Sequence record: MK562505
DNA from: Shigella phage Silverhawkium
Reading direction: 5' to 3' (one strand)
DNA: 64,000 nucleotides
Part shown: in pieces, positions 8,511 to 60,989 of the stretch
Numbering within the stretch: the first letter of the stretch is position 1
How the letters are laid out: every line of letters begins with the position of its first letter
Program-made: the position numbers and the translations under genes
Notes under the pieces: model-generated
What the model saw: the letters and a program-made list of their open reading frames with translations, nothing else
What the model was told of the DNA's origin: nothing
The model's database searches: none

Positions 8511-8664
8511 TTTAACTTTCCTCTTAAGTCACAATAAAGGAGTCCTAGAAAGAACCCTAGTGAGATAGAACCGATGAATAAACCAATTATGTTCTCTGCC
8601 ATATCTAACATCCAATAAAAAGGTGATGCAAGCCTATCAAGACCTACACCACCTTGTCAACTAC

Positions 8665-11255: not shown

Positions 11256-11274
11256 TTGTGCTCCTTTATATACG

Positions 11275-17527: not shown

Positions 17528-18584
17528 TCATAGTAGGCTCCCATCCATATTTTTCAAACGTGAAATCATCCTTTGGATTTCGTTCTTGGTATGCAATCCA
17601 GAAATGCTGCTGCATTAACTCTAGTGGTGTTCTGGTAACTGTTTGACCATCCCACGACACATATGTGTAAGAGTCTTTTTTGGCATACAATTCATAGATA
17701 GCATCTAAACACTCTTTATAGGTTGTTTTACCTTCCAGAGCATTCATGACAGCAACTTTACCAGCACCCTTAAGGCCAAAGTAGTTATCTGCATTATCAC
17801 CAGCTACAGCTTGGTAGCAGAGGAATTTAAATCCTACCCCGACTGTCTTCTTAGCTTTTGGTTTAGATTTGATAGGGCAATCCCAAATCTCACCAACGTT
17901 ATTGTCAGCGATGAAGATAAGCGGTGCTTTCTCATAAGTCATATCAATACAATAAGTATTTTCTGCTTGACGAAGGTCTTTGTCAATACTCATGAGTGCA
18001 GCTTTCTTACCTAACTTTTCAGCTTTTGCAATAACGATTGAGTCAGCCTCAAAACCACCTTTGAGAAGCTTGAACTCAGGTCGTGACAGAAGATACTCAC
18101 GACAAGCAACTAAGTGCGTAGGTGTCACTGCTTCTTTTCTGTTACCTTGATACTGGTGCTCTAGACCTTTAATATCTTTGTGTTTATGAACACCCTTCTC
18201 AGTGAGGTAACCCATCCATTTACGTTCTTTACCAACAACTTTCAGCCATTCTTGTAAAACCTGCTGAGTTGCCATGATAGCTTCTTTCTCGCTTTTTGCT
18301 TCCTTCCAAGTCTGTCTTTCCCATTCTTCTTCATCAAAGTCAAGACCAAGTTCCTCCGTAAGAACTCTCTGGTCAGCAAGCCATTGTGAAGCTAACTTAG
18401 CACTATCAAAGTCTTCAGATTCTTCAGCAGTGATTTTATTCACGTATTTGTACTTTGCTTTCTCAACTACACAAGCACCTTTATAAGCAATGCTATCTGA
18501 GTCAATGAAGACATGTGTAACGCTTTCTGGGAGCTTTGTAAGTGTATATTGATTCATTGTATCCTCCATACGAAAAAGCCCCAT
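17517..18584 (-). CDS. 5'-3' exonuclease / flap endonuclease-like (RNase H family)
   Basis: HVFIDSDSIAYKG, SIDKDLRQ and AGDNADNYFGLKGAGKVAV resemble FEN/5'-nuclease acidic-residue and H3TH motifs. Confidence 0.5.
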   Translation of the reverse strand: MGLFRMEDTMNQYTLTKLPESVTHVFIDSDSIAYKGACVVEKAKYKYVNKITAEESEDFDSAKLASQWLADQRVLTEELGLDFDEEEWERQTWKEAKSEKEAIMATQQVLQEWLKVVGKERKWMGYLTEKGVHKHKDIKGLEHQYQGNRKEAVTPTHLVACREYLLSRPEFKLLKGGFEADSIVIAKAEKLGKKAALMSIDKDLRQAENTYCIDMTYEKAPLIFIADNNVGEIWDCPIKSKPKAKKTVGVGFKFLCYQAVAGDNADNYFGLKGAGKVAVMNALEGKTTYKECLDAIYELYAKKDSYTYVSWDGQTVTRTPLELMQQHFWIAYQERNPKDDFTFEKYGWEPTMNED

Positions 18585-18621: not shown

Positions 18622-19476
18622 TTATTCTTCGTCAGTTTCAAAATCTTCATCATCGTCATCCGGTGATGGCAGGTCGTCGTCATCGTCATCACTACCTTTA
18701 TCTTCATCAGAATCTTTTGCATCTTCTTCAGAGATTTCACCGTTATCTTCGACACCTGCAAGACCCAGCAGAGCCAGTTCATCTTCATCCAGTTCAGTTT
18801 CAGTAGCACCACCAGTTCCACCAGTATATGGTACAAGGGTGTCAATGATAAACTGCTCCTGAATTGGCTTAGTAAGAACATTTCCCTCGAATGTGTAGAA
18901 GTGAGTAGAAAGAATCACACTACCAAAGGAACCGTTACCTACTGCAATATCTGGACAGATAACATCATAAGTCTTGTCGTCATCGTGCTTATCAGATTTT
19001 GCTGCTTTAATCTTCTTCATAGGCTGCTTGACAGCAACACGTTTACCATTTACCTCTTCTACCAGCATTACAGGGAAACTCTGTTTTGCTGACCATACAG
19101 CACCGTCTTTGTATGCTGCTGAACGGCTCACTTTCAAGATGTGATAGGTGTCAGCTTCAAATGGTGGCTCACAACCAAACTTCTCTTCGAAGTCATCTGC
19201 ATCAACTGCCTCAGTAGTAACCTTATCCCAACCCATTGGGTTTTTCTTGGACTTGGTGAACTCTTTAAAGAGTTTGTTACCATCTTTTGCAAGGATTGAT
19301 ACGCTGTAGTTACAATCTTTCCCCGGAAAATGTTTATCTACAGATTTACCCTTCTGAGGGCGTGGAATAGTGTTCAGGTAGTAGAACCAAACATCTTTCA
19401 GTAAGTAACGAAGAGTTTCGTGCTCTTTACCATTGTACTTTTCTACCGGAGACTTCATTTTAACAACTTTAGACAT
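18622..19476 (-). CDS. putative single-stranded DNA-binding protein with acidic C-terminal tail
   Basis: 284 aa; extreme acidic C-terminus (DSDEDKGSDDDDDDLPSPDDDDEDFETDEE); placement in the replication module. Confidence 0.45.
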   Translation of the reverse strand: MSKVVKMKSPVEKYNGKEHETLRYLLKDVWFYYLNTIPRPQKGKSVDKHFPGKDCNYSVSILAKDGNKLFKEFTKSKKNPMGWDKVTTEAVDADDFEEKFGCEPPFEADTYHILKVSRSAAYKDGAVWSAKQSFPVMLVEEVNGKRVAVKQPMKKIKAAKSDKHDDDKTYDVICPDIAVGNGSFGSVILSTHFYTFEGNVLTKPIQEQFIIDTLVPYTGGTGGATETELDEDELALLGLAGVEDNGEISEEDAKDSDEDKGSDDDDDDLPSPDDDDEDFETDEE

Positions 19477-19519: not shown

Positions 19520-19548
19520 TGGGAGTACAATCTTACACACTTCATACT
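19520..19548 (-). promoter_or_regulatory. sigma70-like promoter (-35 TTGACA, 17-nt spacer, -10 TAAGAT) upstream of the SSB-like gene
   Basis: read on the minus strand. Confidence 0.45.
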
Positions 19549-19563
19549 CCCTTGTCAAACCTT

Positions 19564-22930: not shown

Positions 22931-23734
22931 TTACTGCTCAGTAGCTTGTGAGTTTTCACGTTCAGCCATTGCATCAAGCTGTTCACAGAACTCTTCACCA
23001 AAAGTAATTGCAATCTTTTCACGTACAATTGCTGCACCTGTCTGGGTGAACACTTCATAAAGCGCACCTACACTTGCACCTCCAGACATTTCTTCTACAA
23101 AGCTTGGTTCAGCATCGAGAATTTTTGATACCTCTAAAAGAGCATGGATACCCATCACACTAATCACAGCAGACAGGATTGACGTCAGTTTAATCTGACT
23201 AGTATCAATACCTGCTACAGACTCTGACGCTGCAACTTGCTCAAGTTTCTGCACTGAAGACTTAGCATACTCTTTAGCAACATCAGAGATGGCATCATAC
23301 CCCCAATCCAGCTTTTGATAGCGAGGTGAATGGTCATTCATGCGTTTCTCAAGAGAGGCCATCACAGCAGCAACTGGTGCTACAGTGGCATTTACCAGTT
23401 CTTCTTCGCTCATCTTGTCAAGCTCTTTTAAACCAGCCTCTGTGATTGCATTGTAACCACCTGCATACATCTCATTAAAGATGTACTCAGCAAAAGTGTC
23501 AAGGCCAATTACAATGGACTGTAAAGCGGCTTTACGATTGTCAAGCAAGAACTTAACCTCGTTTCGGAATTTCTCATCAGAGTCTACACCAGCCCCATCT
23601 GGACGGAGTGAGTCTGGGATTACTTTTCCAGACAGTGAATTACTACGCATAACTACAGCAAGTGTCTCCACTGTGTTAAGCAGGAAGTTCTCATTGATAC
23701 CTTTTTCAAGCAACACTTCATTTACAGTTTTCAT
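22931..23734 (-). CDS. hypothetical protein (267 aa); first 37 codons lie in a duplicated segment
   Basis: ORF; no recognisable motif. Confidence 0.45.
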   Translation of the reverse strand: MKTVNEVLLEKGINENFLLNTVETLAVVMRSNSLSGKVIPDSLRPDGAGVDSDEKFRNEVKFLLDNRKAALQSIVIGLDTFAEYIFNEMYAGGYNAITEAGLKELDKMSEEELVNATVAPVAAVMASLEKRMNDHSPRYQKLDWGYDAISDVAKEYAKSSVQKLEQVAASESVAGIDTSQIKLTSILSAVISVMGIHALLEVSKILDAEPSFVEEMSGGASVGALYEVFTQTGAAIVREKIAITFGEEFCEQLDAMAERENSQATEQ

Positions 23735-23877
23735 TTTTAATCTCTCTCATTTTTCCAGACAGTGAATTACTACGCATAACTACAGCAAGTGTCTCCACTG
23801 TGTTAAGCAGGAAGTTCTCATTGATACCTTTTTCAAGCAACACTTCATTTACAGTTTTCATTTTTAATCTCTCTCAT
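23624..23877. repeat. perfect 127-bp direct tandem duplication (23624-23750 and 23751-23877)
   Basis: base-by-base identity of the two copies; covers the 3' end of the upstream gene and the RBS/start plus 37 codons of the downstream gene. Confidence 0.9.
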
Positions 23878-24285
23878 TTTGTTAATAGTAAGTCGTGATA
23901 ATCTTAAACCTTCCTGTGAAGAGAAGTCAAGTCCTTTTTCAGACCTTGGGAAGTAATGCCTATCCCAAGTACTCTCTGCATCTTGAAGAAGTGTTGCTAG
24001 ACTAACTAAGTCTGTTCCGTTTTGCAACTTCTTTTTTAAGGTGTCTATCAAAAATGTTGTATCTTTTGCTTTACGCCTCTCAGAAGAAATCTCCTTCATA
24101 TGCTCAAAGACTGAGCACTTCATTTCTTCGTCATATCCTTCAGACAACTCTATCTCGTGCTGAACATCAACCATACGACGATGTTGATAAGCGTACTCCT
24201 TCTGTGATTCTAAGTCAAGCTTTTCGATTTTCTCTAGAGCCTCAATGAAATTCAAGATATCTGGGTGAACGTACATCCTCTGCAT
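23845..24285 (-). CDS. hypothetical protein (146 aa)
   Basis: first gene of the minus-strand operon next to the divergent promoter region. Confidence 0.45.
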   Translation of the reverse strand: MQRMYVHPDILNFIEALEKIEKLDLESQKEYAYQHRRMVDVQHEIELSEGYDEEMKCSVFEHMKEISSERRKAKDTTFLIDTLKKKLQNGTDLVSLATLLQDAESTWDRHYFPRSEKGLDFSSQEGLRLSRLTINKMREIKNENCK

Positions 24286-24376
24286 GATTGCCTCTGTTAA
24301 GTTTCTATAAAGAGTTTAATCTCTTATCTTTACGTATTCTATACGTATACTTTAAAGCTTTTAAAAGGCTATTAAA

Positions 24377-24434
24377 AGTCTTTTAAGGGTTTTAAAGAAT
24401 CTGTATAGTAAGTCTGTAAAGGGAGTCTATTAAG
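24377..24434. repeat. three direct repeats AGTCT-N-T-N-AAG in the divergent intergenic region
   Basis: agtcttttaag (24377-24387), agtctgtaaag (24411-24421), agtctattaag (24424-24434) in an AT-rich region. Confidence 0.5.
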
Positions 24435-24452
24435 ATAAAACCCACTTCGAAA

Positions 24453-24482
24453 AGATTAACACCTTGTCAAGTGCTTTGTCAA
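24453..24482 (-). promoter_or_regulatory. candidate leftward sigma70-like promoter (-35 TTGACA, -10 TAATCT)
   Basis: two tandem minus-strand TTGACA hexamers at 24465-24482. Confidence 0.3.
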
Positions 24483-24543
24483 CTTGCTTTTTCAAAAAAA
24501 GTAGAGTAGTGTATTAACCAGACTGATTTGAGAGGGAGTTAAA

Positions 24544-27243
24544 ATGGAAAATGTAGATTTTGAAAACTTGCATTTAGTTGGTGATACAGAAACTGATGGG
24601 TTGTTGCTTGAGTTCACAAAAGCTCACGTTATGGCCTTTGCAGATTACAAAGATGACAGTGACGAACCTCCTGTTTGGGTATTCACTGATGAACCTATCC
24701 TTGGTCACAAGTATACCAAATACATTAAAGGTGGCTTACGAGAAGGGGTTGAGTTTGCTTTAAAGGCAAAAAGACTTTGCATCCACAATGGTCTGGGTTA
24801 TGACTGGTGGGTGTTTAACCACATTGCACCTGATTTATGGAACTTTGATAATCCAAAGTGTAAACCTTGGGGTGATTTCTTCCAAGACTCACTTATTCAG
24901 TCTCGCGTTCAGTGGATGGATAGGCCAACACCAAAAGGCTACAAAGGTGCTCACGGATTGGCTGCGTGGGGTGCTCGTGTTGGTGTTCGTAAACCTGAGA
25001 TTGAAGAGTGGGGTGTATGGAATGCAGAAATCCTTAACCGTGTTGTTGAAGATATCCGCATTAACGCCAAAGCAAAAAGGGCTATGGATAATGAGTATCT
25101 AAAACTGAAGAAGTGTGGTGTTGATACTTATGAAACATACATGAGAGCCAAGGAAACATCTTTTTGGATGAGTCAGCAAGCAATCAATGGTTGGAAAGCT
25201 GATATCAACAAAATGAAAAGTTGTATCAAAGAGTTGGATAAGATGACTTCTGACTTAGCTTCTGAGGTAGAACCATTCTTACCACCAACTATCAAAACAA
25301 AAGGTAAAGTTACTGGTGAAGAATTTGCCAAGTCATGGAATGAGTACGTAGAGACATTTGGTGGTGCAGATGGTTTGAAGAGAATCACAAAGTACCCTAA
25401 GACAAAATATCGTCAGCAGGTTCGTAATGGTGAGATGCAAAGTTACCCTATCAAGCCATATGGAAAACCAACTACAAAGATTTTCAGCATTGAAAAAAGA
25501 AATTGCTACACTCCAACTAACACCGTTACTGGAGAAGAGTACAAAGAAGGTTTTGTAGCGATGAAAGATGCTCGTGCAGTTTGCAATGAGTTAAATGCTA
25601 AAGTGGATAAGAAGTGCAAAGATTGGAAGCCAGTTAAGACGGTGAAGATTGTGAAGTACTACAACAACCATGTAGTTAATCACTTTGGTCTTGAATCAAG
25701 TCGATACACAGGGTTGATTGATGCACCGTATACACCTATTGAGTTTGAAGTGTCACGAATGACTCAGGTGGCTGTTGTTAAGGATTACTTGAAGACTTTA
25801 GGTTGGATTCCTGATGATTGGAATTACAAGAAGGATTCAGATGGTCGTCCTGTGAAAGTTTGTCGATTCAAAGACAATAAGAAAATGATTCGCAAGCACC
25901 CAAAATGGGATGAAATGGTTGAGCGTTGTGGATTGAACTATGTTGAGCACGAAGGTATTCAGTACATTGAGCATAACTGGTCTGTCAAAAAGTACACAGA
26001 CTTGCTTGAGCCTTGCTTGATTCGTACTTCACCAAAACTGACTGAATCATCTTATGACACCATTGAAGGTGAACTTGGACAGAAGATTGCGAAGTACTAT
26101 ACTTTGATGCACCGACGTAGAACTATTGAGAACTCAAAAGATGATGAAAAGGGCTGGTTGAACCAGATTCGTCCAGATGGTCGTTTGAGTGCTGGTGCAA
26201 TGGTGTTTGGTACATCTACTGGACGTATGACGCAGTATGGTATTGTAAACGTACCTTCTGGTGCTGCCGTTTATGGGGAACCAATGAGGGCAGTTTGGAT
26301 TTGTGAAGAAGGGACAAACGTAGTCTCTGTAGATATGAACTCTGCACAGCTTGTTCTTCTTTGTAACTTTATGGGTGATAAGGATTTCACAAAGGCTGTA
26401 ACTGAAGGTAAAGAAGAGATTGAGTTTGTTCGTCAAGAAGATGGTCGTTACTATTGCAAACACTTTGATGAATACTTGAACCCTGAAGTTGACAAGTATC
26501 TTCGTTATGACCATGAAAATGACCTGTATGTAGTTTACTCAGGTACTGATGCTCATACACTGAACAGTATCTACTTTAGTTTGAATGATGAGCAGGATAT
26601 CTTGACTTGTCGTATGACTCAGGATGAAAATCTTCTTCACGAAATTAGTAAGGGTCGTAAGAAAGCTAAGAATGGTATCTATGCACTGTTGTTCGGTGCA
26701 GGTGATGAAAAGTTTGCTAAGACCATTAAAGCAGCTACCACTCAGGAAGGTGCATTAACTAAACAGACTTACTTTGTGCGTTTGCCGAAGATTAAGAAAC
26801 TGTTAGACAACTTAGAAGCCGACTTTAAAGCTACTAAGAAAGCACTGGAAGAGGTGTTTGGTAAAACTGCTGCTATCGCTAAAGGTGGTTTTGTTAAGGT
26901 TGCTGGTGCTTGGTTGTGGTGTAAATCTCCACATAAACTTTTGAACTATCTGTTGATGGGTTCAGAAGCACAAGTACAGAATGAAGCAATCAACCTTGCT
27001 TGTCGTCGTATGATTGATGAAGGGTTAATGAAACTGAATGGTCGTAAACCAGCTATTGGTGCTCGCCTACTCTGTGCTTACCACGATGAAACAAGCTGGG
27101 AATGTCCAGAGAGCATGACAGCAGAAGTCAAAGCAGTAACTGACTGGTACTACGGGCAAGCTTCTAAGAACTTAGGTCTTAAAAAAGATACCCTTGTAAC
27201 TGGTGCTGGTAAGGTTGGTAAAAGCTGGCTGGAAGTTCACTAA
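24544..27243 (+). CDS. DNA polymerase, family A, with 3'-5' exonuclease domain
   Basis: 899 aa; exo motif LVGDTETDGL; motif A-like VDMNSAQLV, motif B-like KNGIYALLFGAG, motif C-like YHDE; GAGGGAG RBS. Confidence 0.9.
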   Translation: MENVDFENLHLVGDTETDGLLLEFTKAHVMAFADYKDDSDEPPVWVFTDEPILGHKYTKYIKGGLREGVEFALKAKRLCIHNGLGYDWWVFNHIAPDLWNFDNPKCKPWGDFFQDSLIQSRVQWMDRPTPKGYKGAHGLAAWGARVGVRKPEIEEWGVWNAEILNRVVEDIRINAKAKRAMDNEYLKLKKCGVDTYETYMRAKETSFWMSQQAINGWKADINKMKSCIKELDKMTSDLASEVEPFLPPTIKTKGKVTGEEFAKSWNEYVETFGGADGLKRITKYPKTKYRQQVRNGEMQSYPIKPYGKPTTKIFSIEKRNCYTPTNTVTGEEYKEGFVAMKDARAVCNELNAKVDKKCKDWKPVKTVKIVKYYNNHVVNHFGLESSRYTGLIDAPYTPIEFEVSRMTQVAVVKDYLKTLGWIPDDWNYKKDSDGRPVKVCRFKDNKKMIRKHPKWDEMVERCGLNYVEHEGIQYIEHNWSVKKYTDLLEPCLIRTSPKLTESSYDTIEGELGQKIAKYYTLMHRRRTIENSKDDEKGWLNQIRPDGRLSAGAMVFGTSTGRMTQYGIVNVPSGAAVYGEPMRAVWICEEGTNVVSVDMNSAQLVLLCNFMGDKDFTKAVTEGKEEIEFVRQEDGRYYCKHFDEYLNPEVDKYLRYDHENDLYVVYSGTDAHTLNSIYFSLNDEQDILTCRMTQDENLLHEISKGRKKAKNGIYALLFGAGDEKFAKTIKAATTQEGALTKQTYFVRLPKIKKLLDNLEADFKATKKALEEVFGKTAAIAKGGFVKVAGAWLWCKSPHKLLNYLLMGSEAQVQNEAINLACRRMIDEGLMKLNGRKPAIGARLLCAYHDETSWECPESMTAEVKAVTDWYYGQASKNLGLKKDTLVTGAGKVGKSWLEVH

Positions 27244-27303
27244 TAGTGTTGACAAGGTGCTCATGGAAGAGTACCTTATACTATATCTTGTATAGGAGGT
27301 CAT

Positions 27304-27522
27304 ATGACACTTTCAGAGATTGAAGTACAATTGCAGTGTGCAGGTTATTCTCAAAAAGAGATTGAAGGTATGTTTATTGCTCTTTGCAGTGGTTCTAGAA
27401 ATTTGAAGGTAAACCCTGAAGTTCTGCGTAAAGTAGATATCTTTATTGCTGGTGGGAAAATTGCAAAAGATAAGACAGGCTACTTAAAAGGTGAGCACGT
27501 AGATATTGAGAGTTTACTATGA
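27304..27522 (+). CDS. hypothetical protein (72 aa)
   Basis: ORF with AGGAGG RBS. Confidence 0.4.
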   Translation: MTLSEIEVQLQCAGYSQKEIEGMFIALCSGSRNLKVNPEVLRKVDIFIAGGKIAKDKTGYLKGEHVDIESLL

Positions 27523-27728
27523 GCCACCGTGGAAGAACACATCTGGCAATGATGAAAGATGCTTCAAAGGAGACTATTAAGAACCGTAAGCAGAAGTTGT
27601 TTGAGAGGATGAACAGACTCATTGATAACACTTCTCTTTCTGGTAGTGAGAAGGTTTTCTTGAAAGGGAATCTGAAAAGTATTGCACAGGAACTTATTGA
27701 CATTGAATTTTGGAGACACCAAAAATGA
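27519..27728 (+). CDS. hypothetical protein (69 aa)
   Basis: translationally coupled ORF. Confidence 0.4.
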   Translation: MSHRGRTHLAMMKDASKETIKNRKQKLFERMNRLIDNTSLSGSEKVFLKGNLKSIAQELIDIEFWRHQK

Positions 27729-27976
27729 GCAGTAGAGAAGAAGAAGCTTTAGCAATCTTCAAGAATGAAGACAAATCAATAGCTTTTGTCTCAGAGGCTT
27801 GGTGCAGAGGTTTGGGATATGATTGGTATCTTTTCTTATGCGCTAAGAAAGATGTTAAACCAGTTGATGAAACCCGATTCAAAGAACTGTATAATATCTG
27901 CCAAGAGGGTTATGAAGAACATTACAAAGGTTCTTTGAATCCTGTAAATTCAAAAGCTTCAGATTTATTTTATTGA
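27725..27976 (+). CDS. hypothetical protein (about 83 aa)
   Basis: start set at MSSREEE. Confidence 0.4.
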   Translation: MSSREEEALAIFKNEDKSIAFVSEAWCRGLGYDWYLFLCAKKDVKPVDETRFKELYNICQEGYEEHYKGSLNPVNSKASDLFY

Positions 27977-27986
27977 GAGGTTTAAA

Positions 27987-28232
27987 ATGTTAAAATTATT
28001 GATACCAGCTTTAGCAGTCATACTGGTTGGGTGCAACCCTTCTTATGAGAATAAGGATGCTTCTTACAGACTTCCTCCAGAAATGCAAGACTGCAAGATT
28101 TATAAACTTAATGGTGATGCCATTAGCAGGGATGTTATTGTAGTTCGCTGCCCAAATTCTCAGACTACAACTTCTTACAAGTATGGAAAGAATAGTCAGT
28201 CACACACTACAGTTTTTGATGGAGGATATTGA
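27987..28232 (+). CDS. putative lipoprotein
   Basis: 81 aa; signal peptide ending in lipobox LVGC (MLKLLIPALAVILVGC). Confidence 0.5.
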   Translation: MLKLLIPALAVILVGCNPSYENKDASYRLPPEMQDCKIYKLNGDAISRDVIVVRCPNSQTTTSYKYGKNSQSHTTVFDGGY

Positions 28233-28233
28233 T

Positions 28234-28437
28234 ATGCAGGTTCTGGTAAACTTTATCTATAAGTATGAAAACATCTTCAGCACTATGACTGAAGGTCAAC
28301 GCAATCCAGTTATCCCACGAGAAGGGGATACTGTTGAGATTAATGATTGGAACCACAGAGTTGCAGGGGTCAAGCATAAACTTAAAGATGATTATGACCA
28401 CCAAGTTGTAAATGTGTATTTAGAAGGTAAGTGGTAA
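28234..28437 (+). CDS. hypothetical protein (67 aa)
   Basis: ATG 1 nt after the lipoprotein stop, GGAGG RBS. Confidence 0.4.
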   Translation: MQVLVNFIYKYENIFSTMTEGQRNPVIPREGDTVEINDWNHRVAGVKHKLKDDYDHQVVNVYLEGKW

Positions 28438-28531
28438 TGAGAATCTTACATATCATCTCTGAAGATTTTGGAGGGTGCTCTTGGCACTCATTTTTCACAA
28501 AAGGTTGTCTAGCTTGTGAGGCACGTAATAA

Positions 28532-29632
28532 ATGACAATTCTGTACAAACAAAATAAAGATGGCTCTTTTAACGTCTGGTCATGTGTTGCTGTAGGTGAC
28601 AAAGTCGTCACAACTTATGGTAAAGAAAATGGCAAGATGATGTTTGAAGAGTACACAGCAGAACCTAAGAACATCGGTAAAAAGAATGAGCGTAATGCTG
28701 AACAGCAAGCTCTCTTTGAAGTTGCTGCTAAGTACAAGAAGCAGGTTGACCGTAAAGGGTATGCTTACACAAAATCTGAAGCAGAGAATGTTGAAAAGGT
28801 TGGTGTACAGCTTGCTCAGGATGCTTCCAAGATAAGTCACAAGAAGTATCTGGTATTCCCTGCCGATGCTCAACCTAAACTTGACGGGGTTCGTTGCAGG
28901 ATTTCAAGAGATGCTGACTCAGAAAGTTTTACAGCATATTCTCGTGAGAACACGGTATACAACATTCCTGTAGAGTTGATTCCTGATGTTCTTCTTATGC
29001 TGAAGCTTCATAAAGATGTTGAAGATTTCGACGGTGAGATTTATGCTCATGGTTGGGACTTGGAAGATATTGTGTCTATGATTAAGAATGCTGACAATCC
29101 AGACCGTCACCTTCTTAAATTCTACTGGTATGATATCTGTGACAAGACTAAATCTTGGCCTGAGCGTCGTGAAGTTATTGATAATTCACCAATCGTTGAA
29201 CTCGGTGATGCTTGCAGGGTTGTACCTGTTCAGACAATCCGTGTTAACTCTTGGGAAGAATTTGATAATGCTCATGACAATTGGGTTAAACTCAAGTTTG
29301 AAGGGGCAATGTATCGGTCAATCTCACCAGATTCGTTCTATGAGTGTGGTCACCGTTCGTACTTCTTGATTAAACACAAGAAGATGCACACGCAGGAGTT
29401 CATAGTAACTGCTGTCAAGACTGATAAACGTGGTCACGGTAAGTTCGTTGTAGAGACCCTTCCTAACGTCTTTGTAGATGTTTCATGGAAAACTACCCAT
29501 GAGAAGAAGCAGCATCTTGCTGAACATCCTGAAGAGTTTATCGGGAAGCCTTTAACGGTTCAGTTCCAGAAGATGACTCGTAAGGGGTCTTTACAGTTCC
29601 CTGTTGGGCTTGTTATACGAGATTATGAATAG
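28532..29632 (+). CDS. ATP-dependent DNA ligase
   Basis: 366 aa; adenylation motif I KLDGVR. Confidence 0.8.
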   Translation: MTILYKQNKDGSFNVWSCVAVGDKVVTTYGKENGKMMFEEYTAEPKNIGKKNERNAEQQALFEVAAKYKKQVDRKGYAYTKSEAENVEKVGVQLAQDASKISHKKYLVFPADAQPKLDGVRCRISRDADSESFTAYSRENTVYNIPVELIPDVLLMLKLHKDVEDFDGEIYAHGWDLEDIVSMIKNADNPDRHLLKFYWYDICDKTKSWPERREVIDNSPIVELGDACRVVPVQTIRVNSWEEFDNAHDNWVKLKFEGAMYRSISPDSFYECGHRSYFLIKHKKMHTQEFIVTAVKTDKRGHGKFVVETLPNVFVDVSWKTTHEKKQHLAEHPEEFIGKPLTVQFQKMTRKGSLQFPVGLVIRDYE

Positions 29633-29640
29633 AGGTTAGC

Positions 29641-29790
29641 ATGTTTAGCGCAATTATCCTGTTTGTTTTTGTTGTTTTATCATTATCTTACTTCATAAGT
29701 AAACTGATAAGCATAACATACAAATCAGCCTTAGCCCTTACTCTGTTATCATTTGTAGTAAATGCAGTAGTCAGAGAATTTTTAATATAA
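29641..29790 (+). CDS. small hydrophobic membrane protein (49 aa), absent from the ORF track
   Basis: hand translation MFSAIILFVFVVLSLSYFISKLISITYKSALALTLLSFVVNAVVREFLI; GAGG RBS. Confidence 0.35.
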   Translation: MFSAIILFVFVVLSLSYFISKLISITYKSALALTLLSFVVNAVVREFLI

Positions 29791-29795
29791 AGTTG

Positions 29796-29823
29796 TTGAC
29801 ATAGAAAATTTGGTGAGTATACT
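29796..29823 (+). promoter_or_regulatory. sigma70-like promoter (-35 TTGACA, -10 TATACT)
   Basis: consensus hexamers with 16-nt spacer; transcript would run into the repeat modules. Confidence 0.55.
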
Positions 29824-29854
29824 GAGCAGCATAAACCAACGGGTACTCACCAGC

Positions 29855-30111
29855 ATCACTTAAGAGTCTTTGAAAAGGATTTTTAAGTGATATTTGGTAT
29901 GGTATGGTACGGTTCGGTGGTGTATGGTTTGGTTCGGTGGTGTAAGGTGTGGTCCGGTAAAGTATGGGTAGTTAGTCTCAGCTACATTAAAATGAGACTT
30001 ACCTTTTTAAAAGGTCTTGAAGAGGGTCTTTTAATAAGGTAGGGTAAGGTTAGGTAAGGTATGGTTGGGTTAGGTATGGGTGGATGGTAGTAGCCACGTT
30101 AAAAATCTACC
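29855..30111 (+). repeat. noncoding modular repeat region 1: two units of hairpin + phased GGTNN array + hairpin
   Basis: hairpin atcacttaa/ttaagtgat (29855-29891); 15 in-phase pentamers (29896-29970); hairpin agtctc/gagact (29974-29999); second array (30038-30088); hairpin ggtag/ctacc (30086-30111); no ORF of 60 aa or more. Confidence 0.8.
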
Positions 30112-30169
30112 AAGTTTCTAAAGAGTCTTCTGTTGAGGGTTCTTTATAAACAACTTAACAATAAACTAA

Positions 30170-30775
<606 letters not shown>

Positions 30776-30777
30776 TT

Positions 30778-31218
30778 ATGAATACAAAAGCATTAGCAGC
30801 AAAGTTTAGTTACGGTGATACTGTATCACACTCTGAGATGGACACCTTCTTAGGTATTGAGAAGCCAACTTATCAAGGTAACATTGTTAAGTACGAAGAT
30901 GAAATGAAGGCTTACGCGCTTACACGCCTAAATCGACTTGAGAAGTTTATTGAGAAGCTTCTTAAAGAAGAGAAGATTTATCTGGTTGCTTCAATGGGTG
31001 TTGGTTATCGCGTGGTTGAACCCAAACATCAAGCAACTATTGCAAAACGTAAAATGTCTAGTAAGATTGGTCGTGCTTTAAAGCAAGCCACTCAAGCGAT
31101 TGAGAATGTGAACACTATGGCACTGAGTCATCAAGAACGTTCACGACTGATTGAACAGCAAAACCATTTAGCTGCCATGAAAGCTAACATTAACAAACAA
31201 CGTAGAAAGCCTTTCTAA
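30778..31218 (+). CDS. hypothetical protein (146 aa) with basic C-terminus
   Basis: ORF 3 nt after the previous stop; C-terminus NINKQRRKPF. Confidence 0.5.
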   Translation: MNTKALAAKFSYGDTVSHSEMDTFLGIEKPTYQGNIVKYEDEMKAYALTRLNRLEKFIEKLLKEEKIYLVASMGVGYRVVEPKHQATIAKRKMSSKIGRALKQATQAIENVNTMALSHQERSRLIEQQNHLAAMKANINKQRRKPF

Positions 31219-31229
31219 GTTGATTAGGT

Positions 31230-31252
31230 AGCCTCTTCGGAGGCTCCTTTTT
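31230..31252 (+). terminator. rho-independent terminator after the cassette
   Basis: AGCCTC-ttcg-GAGGCT followed by a T-run. Confidence 0.6.
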
Positions 31253-31253
31253 A

Positions 31254-31512
31254 AAAGGTCTTTAAAAGGGTCTTTTAATAAGGCTCGGCAATGTTCGGCA
31301 TGGTCTGGTATAGTCCGGTGCTGTTCGGCGTGGTAAGGTGAGGTATGGGTAGTTAATCGGAGCTACATAAAAATTCGATTACATCACTTAAGAGTCTTTG
31401 AAAAGGGTTTTTAAGTGAGGTTTGGCTCAGTATGGTTATGTGTGGTGATGTGTGGTTCTGTAAGGTCATGTTTGGTATGGAAGGATGGCAGTAGCCTTAT
31501 AAAAAATCTGCC
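31254..31512 (+). repeat. noncoding modular repeat region 2: same module family as region 1 in a different order
   Basis: arrays at 31282-31351 and 31424-31488; hairpins aatcg/cgatt (31355-31380), atcacttaa/ttaagtga (31383-31418), ggcag/ctgcc (31487-31512). Confidence 0.8.
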
Positions 31513-31531
31513 AAATAAGCTATAAAATCTG

Positions 31532-31560
31532 TTGACAAGTCAGGTGTTATAGCTTATTTT
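31532..31560 (+). promoter_or_regulatory. candidate sigma70-like promoter (-35 TTGACA, 17-nt spacer, -10 TATTTT)
   Basis: upstream of the secreted-protein gene; TATACT also present further downstream. Confidence 0.35.
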
Positions 31561-31600
31561 TATACTCAAATGTATACAAAATTTTATATAGGAGGTAGTT

Positions 31601-31981
31601 ATGAAAAAGTTACTTGTTGGTGTCATTGCTCTTGGTATGAGTTTTAGTGCAGTGGCTATGAAGATGCCTGAAGCAAACTTTAGTGGTGTTGCTTTAGAAT
31701 CTTGTAAGATTGTACAGAAAATTGCATCAAATGCTGGAGAGTTAACTAAACCGTTGTCTGCTACGACTGTTCAAGAAATGACTGATAAGATGGTTGACTA
31801 CAACTACCATTTTATGGGAGATTACTATGACAGATTAGCAGATGAGATGGTCACTCAGAACGTTGACCTTCTTGATAGTAAAGGTATTGAGACTGTAGAA
31901 GATGTGAAAGACAACTTTATGCGTGAGTCTTTCAAAGGTGTTCAATACTTTATTGAAAATCGTCACTGCATGGGTTTATAA
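31601..31981 (+). CDS. putative secreted/periplasmic protein
   Basis: 126 aa; N-terminal signal peptide MKKLLVGVIALGMSFSAVA; AGGAGG RBS. Confidence 0.5.
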   Translation: MKKLLVGVIALGMSFSAVAMKMPEANFSGVALESCKIVQKIASNAGELTKPLSATTVQEMTDKMVDYNYHFMGDYYDRLADEMVTQNVDLLDSKGIETVEDVKDNFMRESFKGVQYFIENRHCMGL

Positions 31982-31983
31982 TC

Positions 31984-32187
31984 ATGAAGAAGAACATCTG
32001 TAGAACAGACTATGGTGAAGTGGTCGATGATGACGGAGTAGTTATTTACAGAGTTTGGGCTAATGATTTTGCAACCGTTGTAGAGTCTTTAGATAACTAC
32101 ATCAATGGGACTCGTGAAAACGTCAGAGCAACTAATCTTGATTCGTTAATCGACACTTCCAGAAAACGGAGAAAGAAAGATGAATGA
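31984..32187 (+). CDS. hypothetical protein (67 aa)
   Basis: ORF overlapping the next gene by 8 nt. Confidence 0.4.
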   Translation: MKKNICRTDYGEVVDDDGVVIYRVWANDFATVVESLDNYINGTRENVRATNLDSLIDTSRKRRKKDE

Positions 32188-32479
32188 GGTTTTTGACCCT
32201 TATGCTCCACAAGATGATTGGGAGGCAAATAGAGAGGCTGAAATGGAAAGCTATATCTGTCCAATGGATGTTGAAGAAATGAGAGAGTTCGTTTCTTACA
32301 GATTCAGAAAAGAGATTGAGAAGCGAAAGTACTCTCAAGCACAAGTTGCAAAGATTTGTGAAATATCTCAAGCAAGAGTCTCGAACATCATTAATGAAAA
32401 TGGTAAAGTAACTCTCGAATACATGCTCAGGGCATGTGAAAAACTAGGTGTAAATTTTAACTTAAGGCTGGCAGACTAA
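32180..32479 (+). CDS. helix-turn-helix DNA-binding protein (XRE-like)
   Basis: 99 aa; SQAQVAKICEISQARVSNIIN fits an HTH motif. Confidence 0.5.
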   Translation: MNEVFDPYAPQDDWEANREAEMESYICPMDVEEMREFVSYRFRKEIEKRKYSQAQVAKICEISQARVSNIINENGKVTLEYMLRACEKLGVNFNLRLAD

Positions 32480-59545: not shown

Positions 59546-59621
59546 TGGAGTATCGGAAGGGACTCGAACCCTCATAAACCTGTTTTGCAGACAGGAACAT
59601 ATCCATTTCTGTCACCGATAC
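59546..59621 (-). tRNA. tRNA-Cys (anticodon GCA)
   Basis: manual cloverleaf; anticodon loop CTGCAAA; T-loop TTCGAGT; CCA encoded. Confidence 0.7.
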
Positions 59622-59627
59622 ATAATT

Positions 59628-59720
59628 TGGAGGAAGATACCAGACTTGAACTGGTACGCCGATTTCTCGGTTACTGGCAGTTTAGCAAACTGCTCCCTTA
59701 CCTGTTAGGGTTAATCTTCC
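59628..59720 (-). tRNA. tRNA-Ser (anticodon GCT), long variable arm
   Basis: anticodon loop TTGCTAA; type II variable arm; T-loop TTCAAGT. Confidence 0.65.
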
Positions 59721-59722
59721 AG

Positions 59723-60457
59723 TTATTTGTTAAGTGCATCTTTCATTTCTGGTGTAGAGATAGAGTCAATAACACCAGTCTTACAAGCATCATCAAACCA
59801 GTCTGGTAAGACATTTGCAAGAAAACCGTTAATGTTTGTCTTAAGATACTCAGCCATCAATGCTACTTCATCAGCAATCATCTGTGTGACTTCTGAAGCG
59901 TATGCAGTAATCTTTGACATACCTTCATTAATCGCTGTAACAGCTTGTGAGGCTAAATCTTCGATTGTATCAAGCCCTTGGTCAATTGCATCTTGTAAGT
60001 CGCTTAGAACGCCGTTTACAGCGTCTATGGAGGTGTTTATAATCTCCATAGCTTTGTTACCATACTCAGTAGCAACTCCCATAATCCCACTGAATGGCGT
60101 ACAACCAACTTGTTCACCTGCTGCTCCCATTACATTAGAGTAGCCTTTTGCCACCTGCATTCGTTGAGAGAACTCATCTACAGATTTCTGACCATACTCA
60201 GTCAGTGTAGTGGTTGTTGAAGTTGTACTGCCAAGACTTGTTGTGAAGCTACTTAAGAGTGCTGCTGTTAATCCAGCCGCAATAAGCTTATCTTGCACAG
60301 TCGGGTCTGTTACGGAACTAATAGAGTTTACTAATGACTGAGAGGCAGCAATTGTACCACCAAGGACTGCTGCACCAGTAATAAGAGGGTTTGAGAAACC
60401 ATTACCAGTTTTAAGGAGATTAAAAATCTCTTTACTTTGTTCTGTCATCTCTTTCAT
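59723..60457 (-). CDS. membrane protein embedded in the tRNA array
   Basis: 245 aa from MKEMTEQ (TAGGTG RBS); two hydrophobic segments, Ser/Thr-rich stretch, acidic helical C-terminal domain. Confidence 0.5.
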   Translation of the reverse strand: MKEMTEQSKEIFNLLKTGNGFSNPLITGAAVLGGTIAASQSLVNSISSVTDPTVQDKLIAAGLTAALLSSFTTSLGSTTSTTTTLTEYGQKSVDEFSQRMQVAKGYSNVMGAAGEQVGCTPFSGIMGVATEYGNKAMEIINTSIDAVNGVLSDLQDAIDQGLDTIEDLASQAVTAINEGMSKITAYASEVTQMIADEVALMAEYLKTNINGFLANVLPDWFDDACKTGVIDSISTPEMKDALNK

Positions 60458-60473
60458 TATGCACCTATAAAGT

Positions 60474-60546
60474 TGGTAGCCCATCGGGATTTGAACCCTG
60501 TTCTCATGTTTTTCAGACAAGCGCTTTAACCATATAAGCTAATTGA
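60474..60546 (-). tRNA. tRNA-like element, isotype unresolved (possibly aberrant)
   Basis: acceptor pairing and TTCAAAT T-loop present; no canonical anticodon stem or D-stem found. Confidence 0.3.
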
Positions 60547-60547
60547 G

Positions 60548-60624
60548 CTATTAAATTGGGGTGACCTACGGGAATCGAACCCGTATAGACCATGTTCACA
60601 GCATGGGTCATTATCCATTTATGA
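60548..60624 (-). tRNA. tRNA-His (anticodon GTG)
   Basis: anticodon stem CCATG/CATGG, loop CTGTGAA; T-loop TTCGATT. Confidence 0.7.
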
Positions 60625-60664
60625 TAAGGCCACATTTAAGGACTCTCGTAAGAACCCTTAGAAG

Positions 60665-60740
60665 TGGCAGCAGTATAAGGATTTGAACCTTAATCTTTCA
60701 GCTTCAGAGGCTGGAGCATTGCCAGTTATGCTATACTGCT
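60665..60740 (-). tRNA. tRNA-Gln (anticodon CTG)
   Basis: anticodon loop CTCTGAA with one stem mismatch; T-arm TAAGG/CCTTA. Confidence 0.55.
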
Positions 60741-60746
60741 AATATT

Positions 60747-60817
60747 TGGTACTCCATATCGGATTCGAACCGATACATAACACAGATTTTAAATCTGGCC
60801 TCTCTGCCAATTGGAGT
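60747..60817 (-). tRNA. short tRNA-like gene, anticodon unresolved (possibly TAA)
   Basis: good acceptor and T-arm (ATCGG-TTCGAAT-CCGAT); anticodon region folds non-canonically. Confidence 0.4.
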
Positions 60818-60827
60818 AATGGAGCCT

Positions 60828-60903
60828 TGGCGGGGGATGATGGAATTGAACCATCTTCTTCGATTTCAAAGACCGAGGTTTTAACCTTGTAAACTAATCC
60901 CCT
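60828..60903 (-). tRNA. tRNA-Gln (anticodon TTG)
   Basis: anticodon stem TCGGT/ATCGA, loop CTTTGAA; A1-C72 mismatch. Confidence 0.6.
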
Positions 60904-60911
60904 ATTAAATT

Positions 60912-60988
60912 TGGTGCAGAATAGAGGATTCGAACCCCTAACAAACAACTTCGTAGATTGCTGTTCTATCCATTTGAACTAATTCTGC
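60912..60988 (-). tRNA. tRNA-Arg (anticodon ACG)
   Basis: perfect acceptor GCAGAAT/ATTCTGC; anticodon loop CTACGAA. Confidence 0.6.
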
Positions 60989-60989
60989 A

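Follow-up and report, generated by a model that had tools for sequence, protein, structure and literature searches.

What does the 258-bp gap between the DNA polymerase gene of a Felix O1-like phage and the leftward operon beside it do: does it control early transcription, does it start replication, or both? The gap lies at 24286-24543 of the 64,000-nt stretch of Shigella phage Silverhawkium DNA analysed here (record MK562505; hereafter the window), which comes from a Mooglevirus, a Felix O1-like myovirus of the Ounavirinae. It is homologous to the gap between ORF96 (polymerase) and ORF97 of Felix O1, where divergent promoters were supposed to start early transcription, although the authors found no sigma-70-like sequence there and temporal control was not understood (PMC3185647). 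RT-PCR timing showed RNA of ORF96 to be present within 5 minutes of infection (PMC3185647). We found no transcriptome, start-site, footprinting, binding or origin report in the literature on the Felix O1 group or the Ounavirinae. An initial annotation of the sequence had described three direct repeats, palindromes and tandem TTGACA hexamers in the gap, and had proposed a shared regulator-binding site or an origin-like element. Our analysis suggests that the gap probably holds back-to-back host-type promoters and a conserved row of about ten 8-base repeats, and we favour, with a probability of roughly 0.6, its reading as the early promoter and leader control module of the replication gene cluster, with repeats that would be read by a putative factor.

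The region 23800-25300 shares 98.6% identity with Shigella phage Sf13 and is matched by more than 230 Ounavirinae records; the remainder of the window is a mosaic with 82-98% identity to Sf13. The leftward ORF at 23845-24285 (phrog_4039) is the first gene of an operon with dNMP kinase, primase-helicase and exonuclease genes. The junction of this ORF with ORF 22931-23734 is spanned by a perfect tandem duplication of 127 bp (23624-23880; 2.0 copies, 100% match), which may be very recent or may have arisen in assembly; the Sf13 counterparts of the two ORFs overlap instead. Beyond the polymerase gene, the window (27244-27303, compared with L033 23091-23618) is without the HNH homing endonuclease gene that sits there in Sf13 and in Felix O1, and 24 tRNA genes are clustered on the minus strand at 59546-63896, with promoter-like sites between them at 62377 and 62810. 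Within and around the gap the following features are distinguished.

24286-24543, unstranded: divergent intergenic region, read here as a control region, with the leftward ORF 23845-24285 on one side and the DNA polymerase gene 24544-27243 on the other
24294-24312, + strand: two further repeat units, CTGTTAAG at 24294 and CTATAAAG at 24305, assigned by pattern match
24332-24346, unstranded: 15-bp palindrome ACGTAT-TCT-ATACGT, inside tandem 11-mers at 24327-24348
24339-24408, unstranded: long imperfect inverted repeat with 35-nt arms, built of self-complementary units
24350-24434, + strand: main array of eight same-orientation CTNTWAAG units spaced 8-13 bp, about one helical turn, which includes the three repeats annotated initially
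24453-24482, minus strand: P_L, predicted leftward promoter, with -35 TTGACA (24482->24477), an 18-bp spacer and -10 TAATCT (24458->24453)
24483-24500, minus strand: A/T-tract stretch upstream of P_L, TTTTTTTGAAAAAGCAAG, which resembles an UP element by sequence only
24484-24512, + strand: P_R, predicted rightward promoter of the polymerase gene, with -35 TTGCTT (24484-24489), a 17-bp spacer and -10 TAGTGT (24507-24512)

The three direct repeats are real, since AGTCTTTTAAG (24377-24387), AGTCTGTAAAG (24411-24421) and AGTCTATTAAG (24424-24434) all lie on the + strand, and the motif-enrichment check proposed for them came out in their favour, with five matches to AGTCTNTWAAG in the window against 0.56 expected and none of 100 shuffles reaching five. 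They are three of about ten same-strand CTNTWAAG units (up to one mismatch) about 11 bp apart, which start at 24294, 24305, 24350, 24358, 24369, 24380, 24390, 24401, 24414 and 24427. Exact CTNTWAAG occurs six times within the 258 bp, compared with 31 times on the + strand of the entire 64 kb, and the gap is the sole cluster of at least three exact copies in the window; no cluster of at least three units arose in 30 dinucleotide-preserving shuffles. The units at 24294 and 24305 lie just upstream of the Shine-Dalgarno sequence of the leftward gene (+ strand GCCTCT, 24290-24295) and keep their positions in Felix O1 and Moogle, two phages that also agree with the window in the number and phasing of units.

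Conservation was assessed in an alignment of 28 distinct relatives as the fraction of invariant positions per position class. Invariance reaches 84% over the seven specified positions of the unit cores versus 38% for the spacers between units, and the reference rates in the flanking genes are 73-77% for codon positions 1 and 2 and 25-27% for codon position 3. The AG of AGTCT belongs to the variable part, G24378 being A in at least 90% of the relatives, so that the repeats are present and non-random but AGTCT is a lineage-specific form and not their conserved core. The initial observation thus stands, in that the features it described are where it placed them and exceed chance, while its description of the motif needs revision. 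Arrays of CTNTWAAG in the same orientation are also found upstream of the polymerase gene in a Hafnia Zyzzx-like phage, in Erwinia phage M7 and in Pectobacterium phage Arno18, which has six units 12-14 bp apart; the polymerase of these phages is only about 60% identical, yet the arrays have been kept. These patterns show sequence-specific selection on the repeats.

Such a row could in principle do without a dedicated factor, if flexible or curved AT-rich DNA served as an UP-like element for a proximal promoter or as a target of nucleoid proteins. The gap is indeed AT-rich, AA dinucleotides recur in 24335-24444 with a period of about 10.75 bp (rank 69 among 12,779 windows), and a proximal leftward candidate matching 9 of 12 consensus positions is present, with -35 TTAAAA at 24364->24359, a 17-bp spacer and -10 TAGAAT at 24341->24336. 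The periodicity rank is good, however, and not extreme, and in each unit C, T, A, A and G are conserved position by position next to variable spacers, more than composition or bending alone would call for, so we consider this explanation quite improbable.

The tandem TTGACA hexamers exist, but on the minus strand only (24482->24477 and 24470->24465), the + strand reading TTGTCAA, and the best reading of them is as a -35 region that belongs to a leftward sigma-70 promoter, not as origin elements. Taken alone, a single tandem in 64 kb lacks significance (0.34 expected; at least one in 28 of 100 shuffles), and its weight comes from recurrence in whole genomes, not from the window count. The most conserved block of the gap, AAAACCCACTTCG.AAAAGATTAACACCTTGTCAAG...TTTGTCAACTTGCTTTTT, is found here. 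In the 28 relatives the two TTGACA boxes never vary (100% invariant), while invariance is 33% in the 6 bp that separate them and 83% in the P_L -10 hexamer; for P_R, the -35 is 100% invariant, the -10 67% (T1, A2, G5 and T6 fixed) and the spacer 29%. Hexamers that are 67-100% invariant are therefore set off from spacers at 29-33%, near the level of codon position 3. Both P_L and P_R have -35- and -10-like hexamers 16-18 bp apart, the hexamers are kept while the spacer sequence is free, and the paralogous modules and the distant relative L028 likewise space their hexamers by 17-18 bp. Pairs of the form TTGACA-N16-18-TANNNT number 20 in the window against 4.5 expected.

We infer that both promoters are used, with transcription starting at about 24446 from P_L and about 24519-24520 from P_R, the latter ahead of a Shine-Dalgarno sequence, GAGGGAG, at 24532-24538. 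The two are arranged back to back with their -35 elements 1 bp apart, and the A/T tracts at 24483-24500 overlap the P_R -35 hexamer and the start of the P_R spacer. P_L matches the consensus at 9 of 12 positions, its -10 at only 3 of 6; P_R is weaker, with only 6 of 12 (T1, A2 and T6 in the -10). In distant relatives the place of P_R is taken by TTGCAA-17-TACTAT (L028), TTGACC-17-CATACT (Arno18) or an extended -10, and the rightward promoter predicted there is stronger than P_R. A consensus promoter scan of the window left P_L and P_R both below its threshold, which may explain why they were missed in 2010. The second TTGACA, inside the P_L spacer (24470->24465), is invariant too, which a simple promoter does not explain. 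An extended -35 context, TTGACAAGGTG, is common to promoter-like sites at 8660(-), 24470(-) and 27249(+), and the site at 31532(+) has a related one, TTGACAAG-TCA-GGTG; several promoter-like sites also carry an inverted repeat over the spacer and start region, e.g. 19530-19558 and 29796-29850.

From P_L the transcript would have a leader of about 160 nt with 72% A+T. A Rho rut site was considered for this leader and rejected because it is not C-rich (16% C, 13% G; C/G 1.19, with 0.85-1.12 in the paralogous leaders); the pattern of five C residues at N10-12 intervals is also absent from the window leader and occurs no more than once in the paralogous leaders.

The complete Sf13 genome has three copies of the tandem TTGACA, at 65320 (the polymerase gap), at 18525 (the other divergent gap) and at 29775 (between two leftward early genes). 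Each has a TANNNT at 17-18 bp, followed by an AT-rich leader of CTNTWAAG units and then by a gene on that strand, usually with a short palindrome between the unit array and the gene, and a stretch similar to the A/T tracts of P_L, TTTTGAAAAA, lies upstream of the 29775 copy. Felix O1 has the same three copies, with the paralogues of the polymerase-gap module at 11269 and 21515, the latter being promoter P41 of Whichard et al. (PMC3185647). The orientation of the units relative to transcription is constant in all three modules of both phages. In IMG/VR the pattern CTTGTCAAG-N3-6-TGTCAA retrieved mostly unrelated contigs among the matches listed.

Both genomes also contain a 1.6-kb gene-free stretch full of CTNTWAAG units (26630-28235 in Sf13, L032; 12306-13927 in Felix O1, L156), in which unit density is 9-13 per kb compared with 1.1 per kb genome-wide, or 8-12 times the genome average. 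It adjoins the direct terminal repeat (DTR) near the genome end, the position of the repeat being that mapped in UAB_Phi87 (PMC4837284). In Felix O1 the stretch comprises two unit blocks in opposite orientations, and RNA made there along incoming transcription would be C-rich (C/G 1.6-1.75). In all modules and terminal blocks, RNA made by an incoming polymerase would read CUUWANAG.

Unit selection, persistence in distant Ounavirinae and recurrence at other regulatory sites of the same genome make a shared recognition element a reasonable idea; what the earlier proposal of a regulator-binding site had wrong was the definition of the motif.

Whether the gap also starts replication is a separate matter. 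The suggestion of an origin-like element is favoured by 24291-24440 (73% A+T), where the duplex is less stable than in any other 150-bp stretch of the window, and by a local minimum of the cumulative GC skew at 24344; against it, the gap 24286-24543 lacks GATC, an exact IHF consensus and any DnaA box (TTATNCACA with one mismatch allowed), no initiator gene was recognised among the nearby proteins examined, and the module is not unique. The skew minimum carries little information, since it coincides with a switch in gene orientation. On the sequence evidence a replication start here is possible.

A classical iteron origin, in which the repeats would bind a nearby-encoded initiator as in lambda ori or iteron plasmids, would account for phased direct repeats in one orientation next to an AT-rich stretch and replication genes. 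Iteron units are typically 17-22 bp long, and a search for at least three direct repeats of about that length found in the gap only the 8-bp cores at 8-13 bp spacing, about 11 bp over the row. Moreover, the arrays occupy three promoter-leader sites per genome, with dozens of further units in the 1.6-kb gene-free region, whereas an iteron origin would be a single locus; no Rep- or O-like initiator gene was recognised among the proteins examined near the gap, and the replisome is T7-like, T7 using no initiator. The short units, the multiple arrays, the lack of a recognised initiator and of DnaA, IHF and GATC sites make such an origin unlikely, and we give it very little chance.

Another kind of origin would be compatible with a promoter role. 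The replisome genes beside the gap encode a T7 gp4-like primase-helicase, a family A polymerase and a gene 6-like exonuclease, and the transcript from P_L might invade the AT-rich array and prime leading-strand synthesis by this T7-like replisome, in the manner of T4 oriF/oriG or the T7 primary origin. The predicted P_L, a strong-looking promoter, does point into the unstable duplex at 24291-24440, and a candidate gp2.5-like SSB (described below) is encoded in the window. The skew minimum speaks for it too, subject to the reservation already made. T7 origins each need a promoter and T7 has several of them (PMC8373140), so three modules per genome are no objection, and the T7 origin includes an A/T-rich cluster (PMC12839067). 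On the other hand, a mere unwinding element needs no sequence-specific conservation of unit cores, and a pair of small early genes flanks one of the paralogous modules. A promoter-plus-AT-rich origin of the T4 or T7 style is possible, though we rate it as fairly unlikely. The T7-type primase site has a conserved 5'-GTC-3' with an A/T-rich 3' flank (PMC12839067); a reading of the repeats as primase sites was discarded, GTC being present in the three AGTCT units of the window but replaced by ATC, AAC or ACC in most relatives.

The units may be recognised in duplex DNA, which fits their helical spacing, or in RNA, which fits their fixed polarity and the resemblance to the T4 gene 32 operator. In the latter case the A/U-rich leader, with its repeated UUAA(A) units and a small hairpin, could be coated cooperatively by a single-strand-binding protein that controls translation or decay of the early mRNA. 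Unit orientation is fixed relative to transcription in three modules and two opposed terminal blocks, the minus-strand leader is only weakly folded (z -1.5), and the palindrome at 24332-24346, which is centred on the possible proximal leftward -10 TAGAAT, reads ATGTAT-GTT-ATACAT in Moogle and Michonne, a symmetric double change that keeps the pairing. In the T4 gene 32 operator, a folded nucleation element is combined with over 40 nt that contain UUAAA/UAAA repeats and the ribosome-binding site (PMC535899). Several points weigh against an RNA operator: the three modules precede unrelated genes, none of them an identified SSB, the spacing of about 11 bp suggests recognition along one face of a DNA duplex, UUAA is a palindrome and frequent wherever sequence is AT-rich, and a candidate binding protein was not recognised among the proteins examined. 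An RNA-level operator seems to us unlikely.

With respect to possible binders, the adjacent 146-aa protein (23845-24285) gained no support as an initiator or regulator: its phrog is of unknown function with only 9 close homologues, it has no Pfam match, and its AlphaFold model, a helical hairpin (pLDDT 72), gave no Foldseek match in the PDB with E <= 0.001. None of 13 neighbouring proteins carries an SSB or regulator annotation; they belong to function-unknown phrogs, with the exception of an HTH protein, one 'minor tail protein' phrog and one NAD synthetase/homing-endonuclease match. The initial annotation had named the HTH protein at 32180-32479 as one to test for binding, but a link between it and these sites is not supported. 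At 18622-19476 on the minus strand, a 284-aa protein (phrog_3877) has an extremely acidic tail (...DDDDDDLPSPDDDDEDFETDEE), which we take to resemble the C-terminus of T7 gp2.5-type SSBs, and it is possibly a gp2.5-like SSB, an annotation that is absent in Felix O1-like phages.

The CTTT/AAAG palindromes were confirmed as CTTTAAAG (24350-24357) and CTTTTAAAAG (24358-24367), and on the + strand 24350-24397 can form a 21-bp hairpin with four G-U pairs, with a fold energy of -22.6 kcal/mol (z -7.1) compared with -8.8 kcal/mol (z -2.3) for the minus strand. The initial annotation had also noted a motif shared by the gap and both GGTNN repeat regions, and this holds: [AG]GTCTT-N3-8-[AG]GG[GTA]T occurs nine times in the window versus 2.35 +/- 1.5 in shuffles, six of the nine being intergenic and on the + strand (24377, 29865, 30013, 30124, 31257 and 31393). 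The GGTNN regions are part of a cassette at 29790-31600 that resembles small-RNA genes, with a strong sigma-70 promoter sequence (TTGACA-16-TATACT, 29796-29823), + strand hairpins at 29856-29888 (z -6.0) and 31384-31416 (z -3.6), four (GGTNN)n arrays each with a terminal hairpin, and two ORFs of unknown function (phrog_4652 and phrog_5926). At least 111 phage records carry at least 80% of the cassette, which is reduced to a single unit in Felix O1 and missing from Sf13, and it has no Rfam match.

A structured + strand RNA or single-stranded DNA hairpin at 24350-24397, related to those of the cassette, could account for the strand difference in folding and for the motif shared with the cassette hairpins 29856-29888 and 31384-31416, both downstream of the sigma-70-type match at 29796. 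Yet the search upstream of 24350 turned up no rightward promoter, most relatives show little or no strand bias, and none of the 24 predicted pairs of the long palindrome shows compensatory changes among them. An Rfam 15 search of 23800-32000 at a permissive E-value found no family, the best hit being a chance miRNA-precursor match over the palindrome (E = 0.055; 26.5 bits against a gathering score of 100). Because strand bias is weak, covariation and an upstream rightward promoter are lacking and the units are self-complementary, the hairpin is likely a by-product, and a function of its own is very improbable.

We therefore return to the early promoter and leader control module, which is favoured by homology to a region where promoters were expected, the hexamer footprint, promoter enrichment, recurrence of the module, selection on the units and their non-random clustering. 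Host RNA polymerase with sigma-70 would start at both promoters, P_L with its preceding A/T tracts serving the leftward operon (dNMP kinase, primase-helicase, exonuclease) and the weaker P_R the polymerase gene. The P_L leader would present about ten helically phased 8-bp units around the 15-bp palindrome, and we infer that these are recognition sites for a putative phage or host factor acting cooperatively along the array. Such a factor may tune early expression by shut-off, by activation of the proximal promoter or through the leader RNA. Counting against this explanation are the modest consensus matches of P_R and of the P_L -10 given above, the invariant second TTGACA, for which a simple promoter gives no account, the failure to recognise a candidate binder among the proteins examined, and the fact that the anatomy also fits an origin made of a promoter and an unwinding element.

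A broader and more tentative scheme, which we think improbable as it stands, would make CTNTWAAG the recognition code of a nucleoprotein system of the Ounavirinae, in which a phage protein polymerises on the module and terminus arrays and couples early shut-off to promoter-dependent initiation of replication. It would be a gram-negative myovirus counterpart of phi29 p6, or else a T4/T7-like origin with sequence-specific repeats.

Felix O1-like phages find wide application in the typing, biocontrol and therapy of Salmonella and E. coli. New here are predicted promoter positions for the replication genes, in a gap that the Felix O1 paper had left open (PMC3185647), and a family of conserved 8-bp repeats by which three early control regions and terminus-proximal non-coding DNA are marked. 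Divergent early promoters as such are ordinary; what seems not to have been described before in Felix O1-like phages is explicit promoter positions for this gap, the strongly footprinted family of 8-bp units and the module in three copies. If a binder exists, the units would offer a handle on the early-to-late switch and possibly on replication initiation, and promoters and leaders of this kind are useful parts for engineering these phages.

The locus can be compared with back-to-back divergent sigma-70 promoters of phage early regions, which likewise have two outward-facing promoters with adjacent -35 elements, TTGACA and TANNNT 17-18 bp apart and early flanking genes; Felix O1 P41 even has the same double TTGACA (TTGACAAAGCACTTGACA; PMC3185647). 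Unlike ordinary divergent promoters, the gap combines weak -10 elements with a second invariant TTGACA in the spacer and a long leader of phased repeats, and its promoters are predicted. T4 oriF/oriG, each a promoter with a downstream AT-rich unwinding region, and the T7 primary origin resemble it in having a promoter followed by an easily melted AT-rich stretch, replication genes nearby and several sites per genome. The differences are that host polymerase would have to supply the primer transcript and that the AT-rich part of the gap is a conserved repeat array. With lambda ori and iteron plasmids the gap shares same-orientation, helically phased repeats beside an AT-rich region, but its units are 8 bp long, its arrays are not unique, and neither an initiator nor DnaA boxes were recognised. 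As in the T4 gene 32 operator, a small folded element is followed by an unstructured A/U-rich, UUAAA-like run that reaches the ribosome-binding site, whereas the downstream genes do not encode an SSB, the module serves three unrelated operons and no pseudoknot is predicted. Finally, short CCTAAAG-type arrays lie adjacent to the terminal repeats of T7, and binding arrays of phi29 p6 are placed at the genome ends and early promoters. Although their sequences differ, and the orientation relative to transcription appears opposite to that in T7, these arrays likewise bring short phased repeats to the vicinity of a genome terminus and to early promoters.
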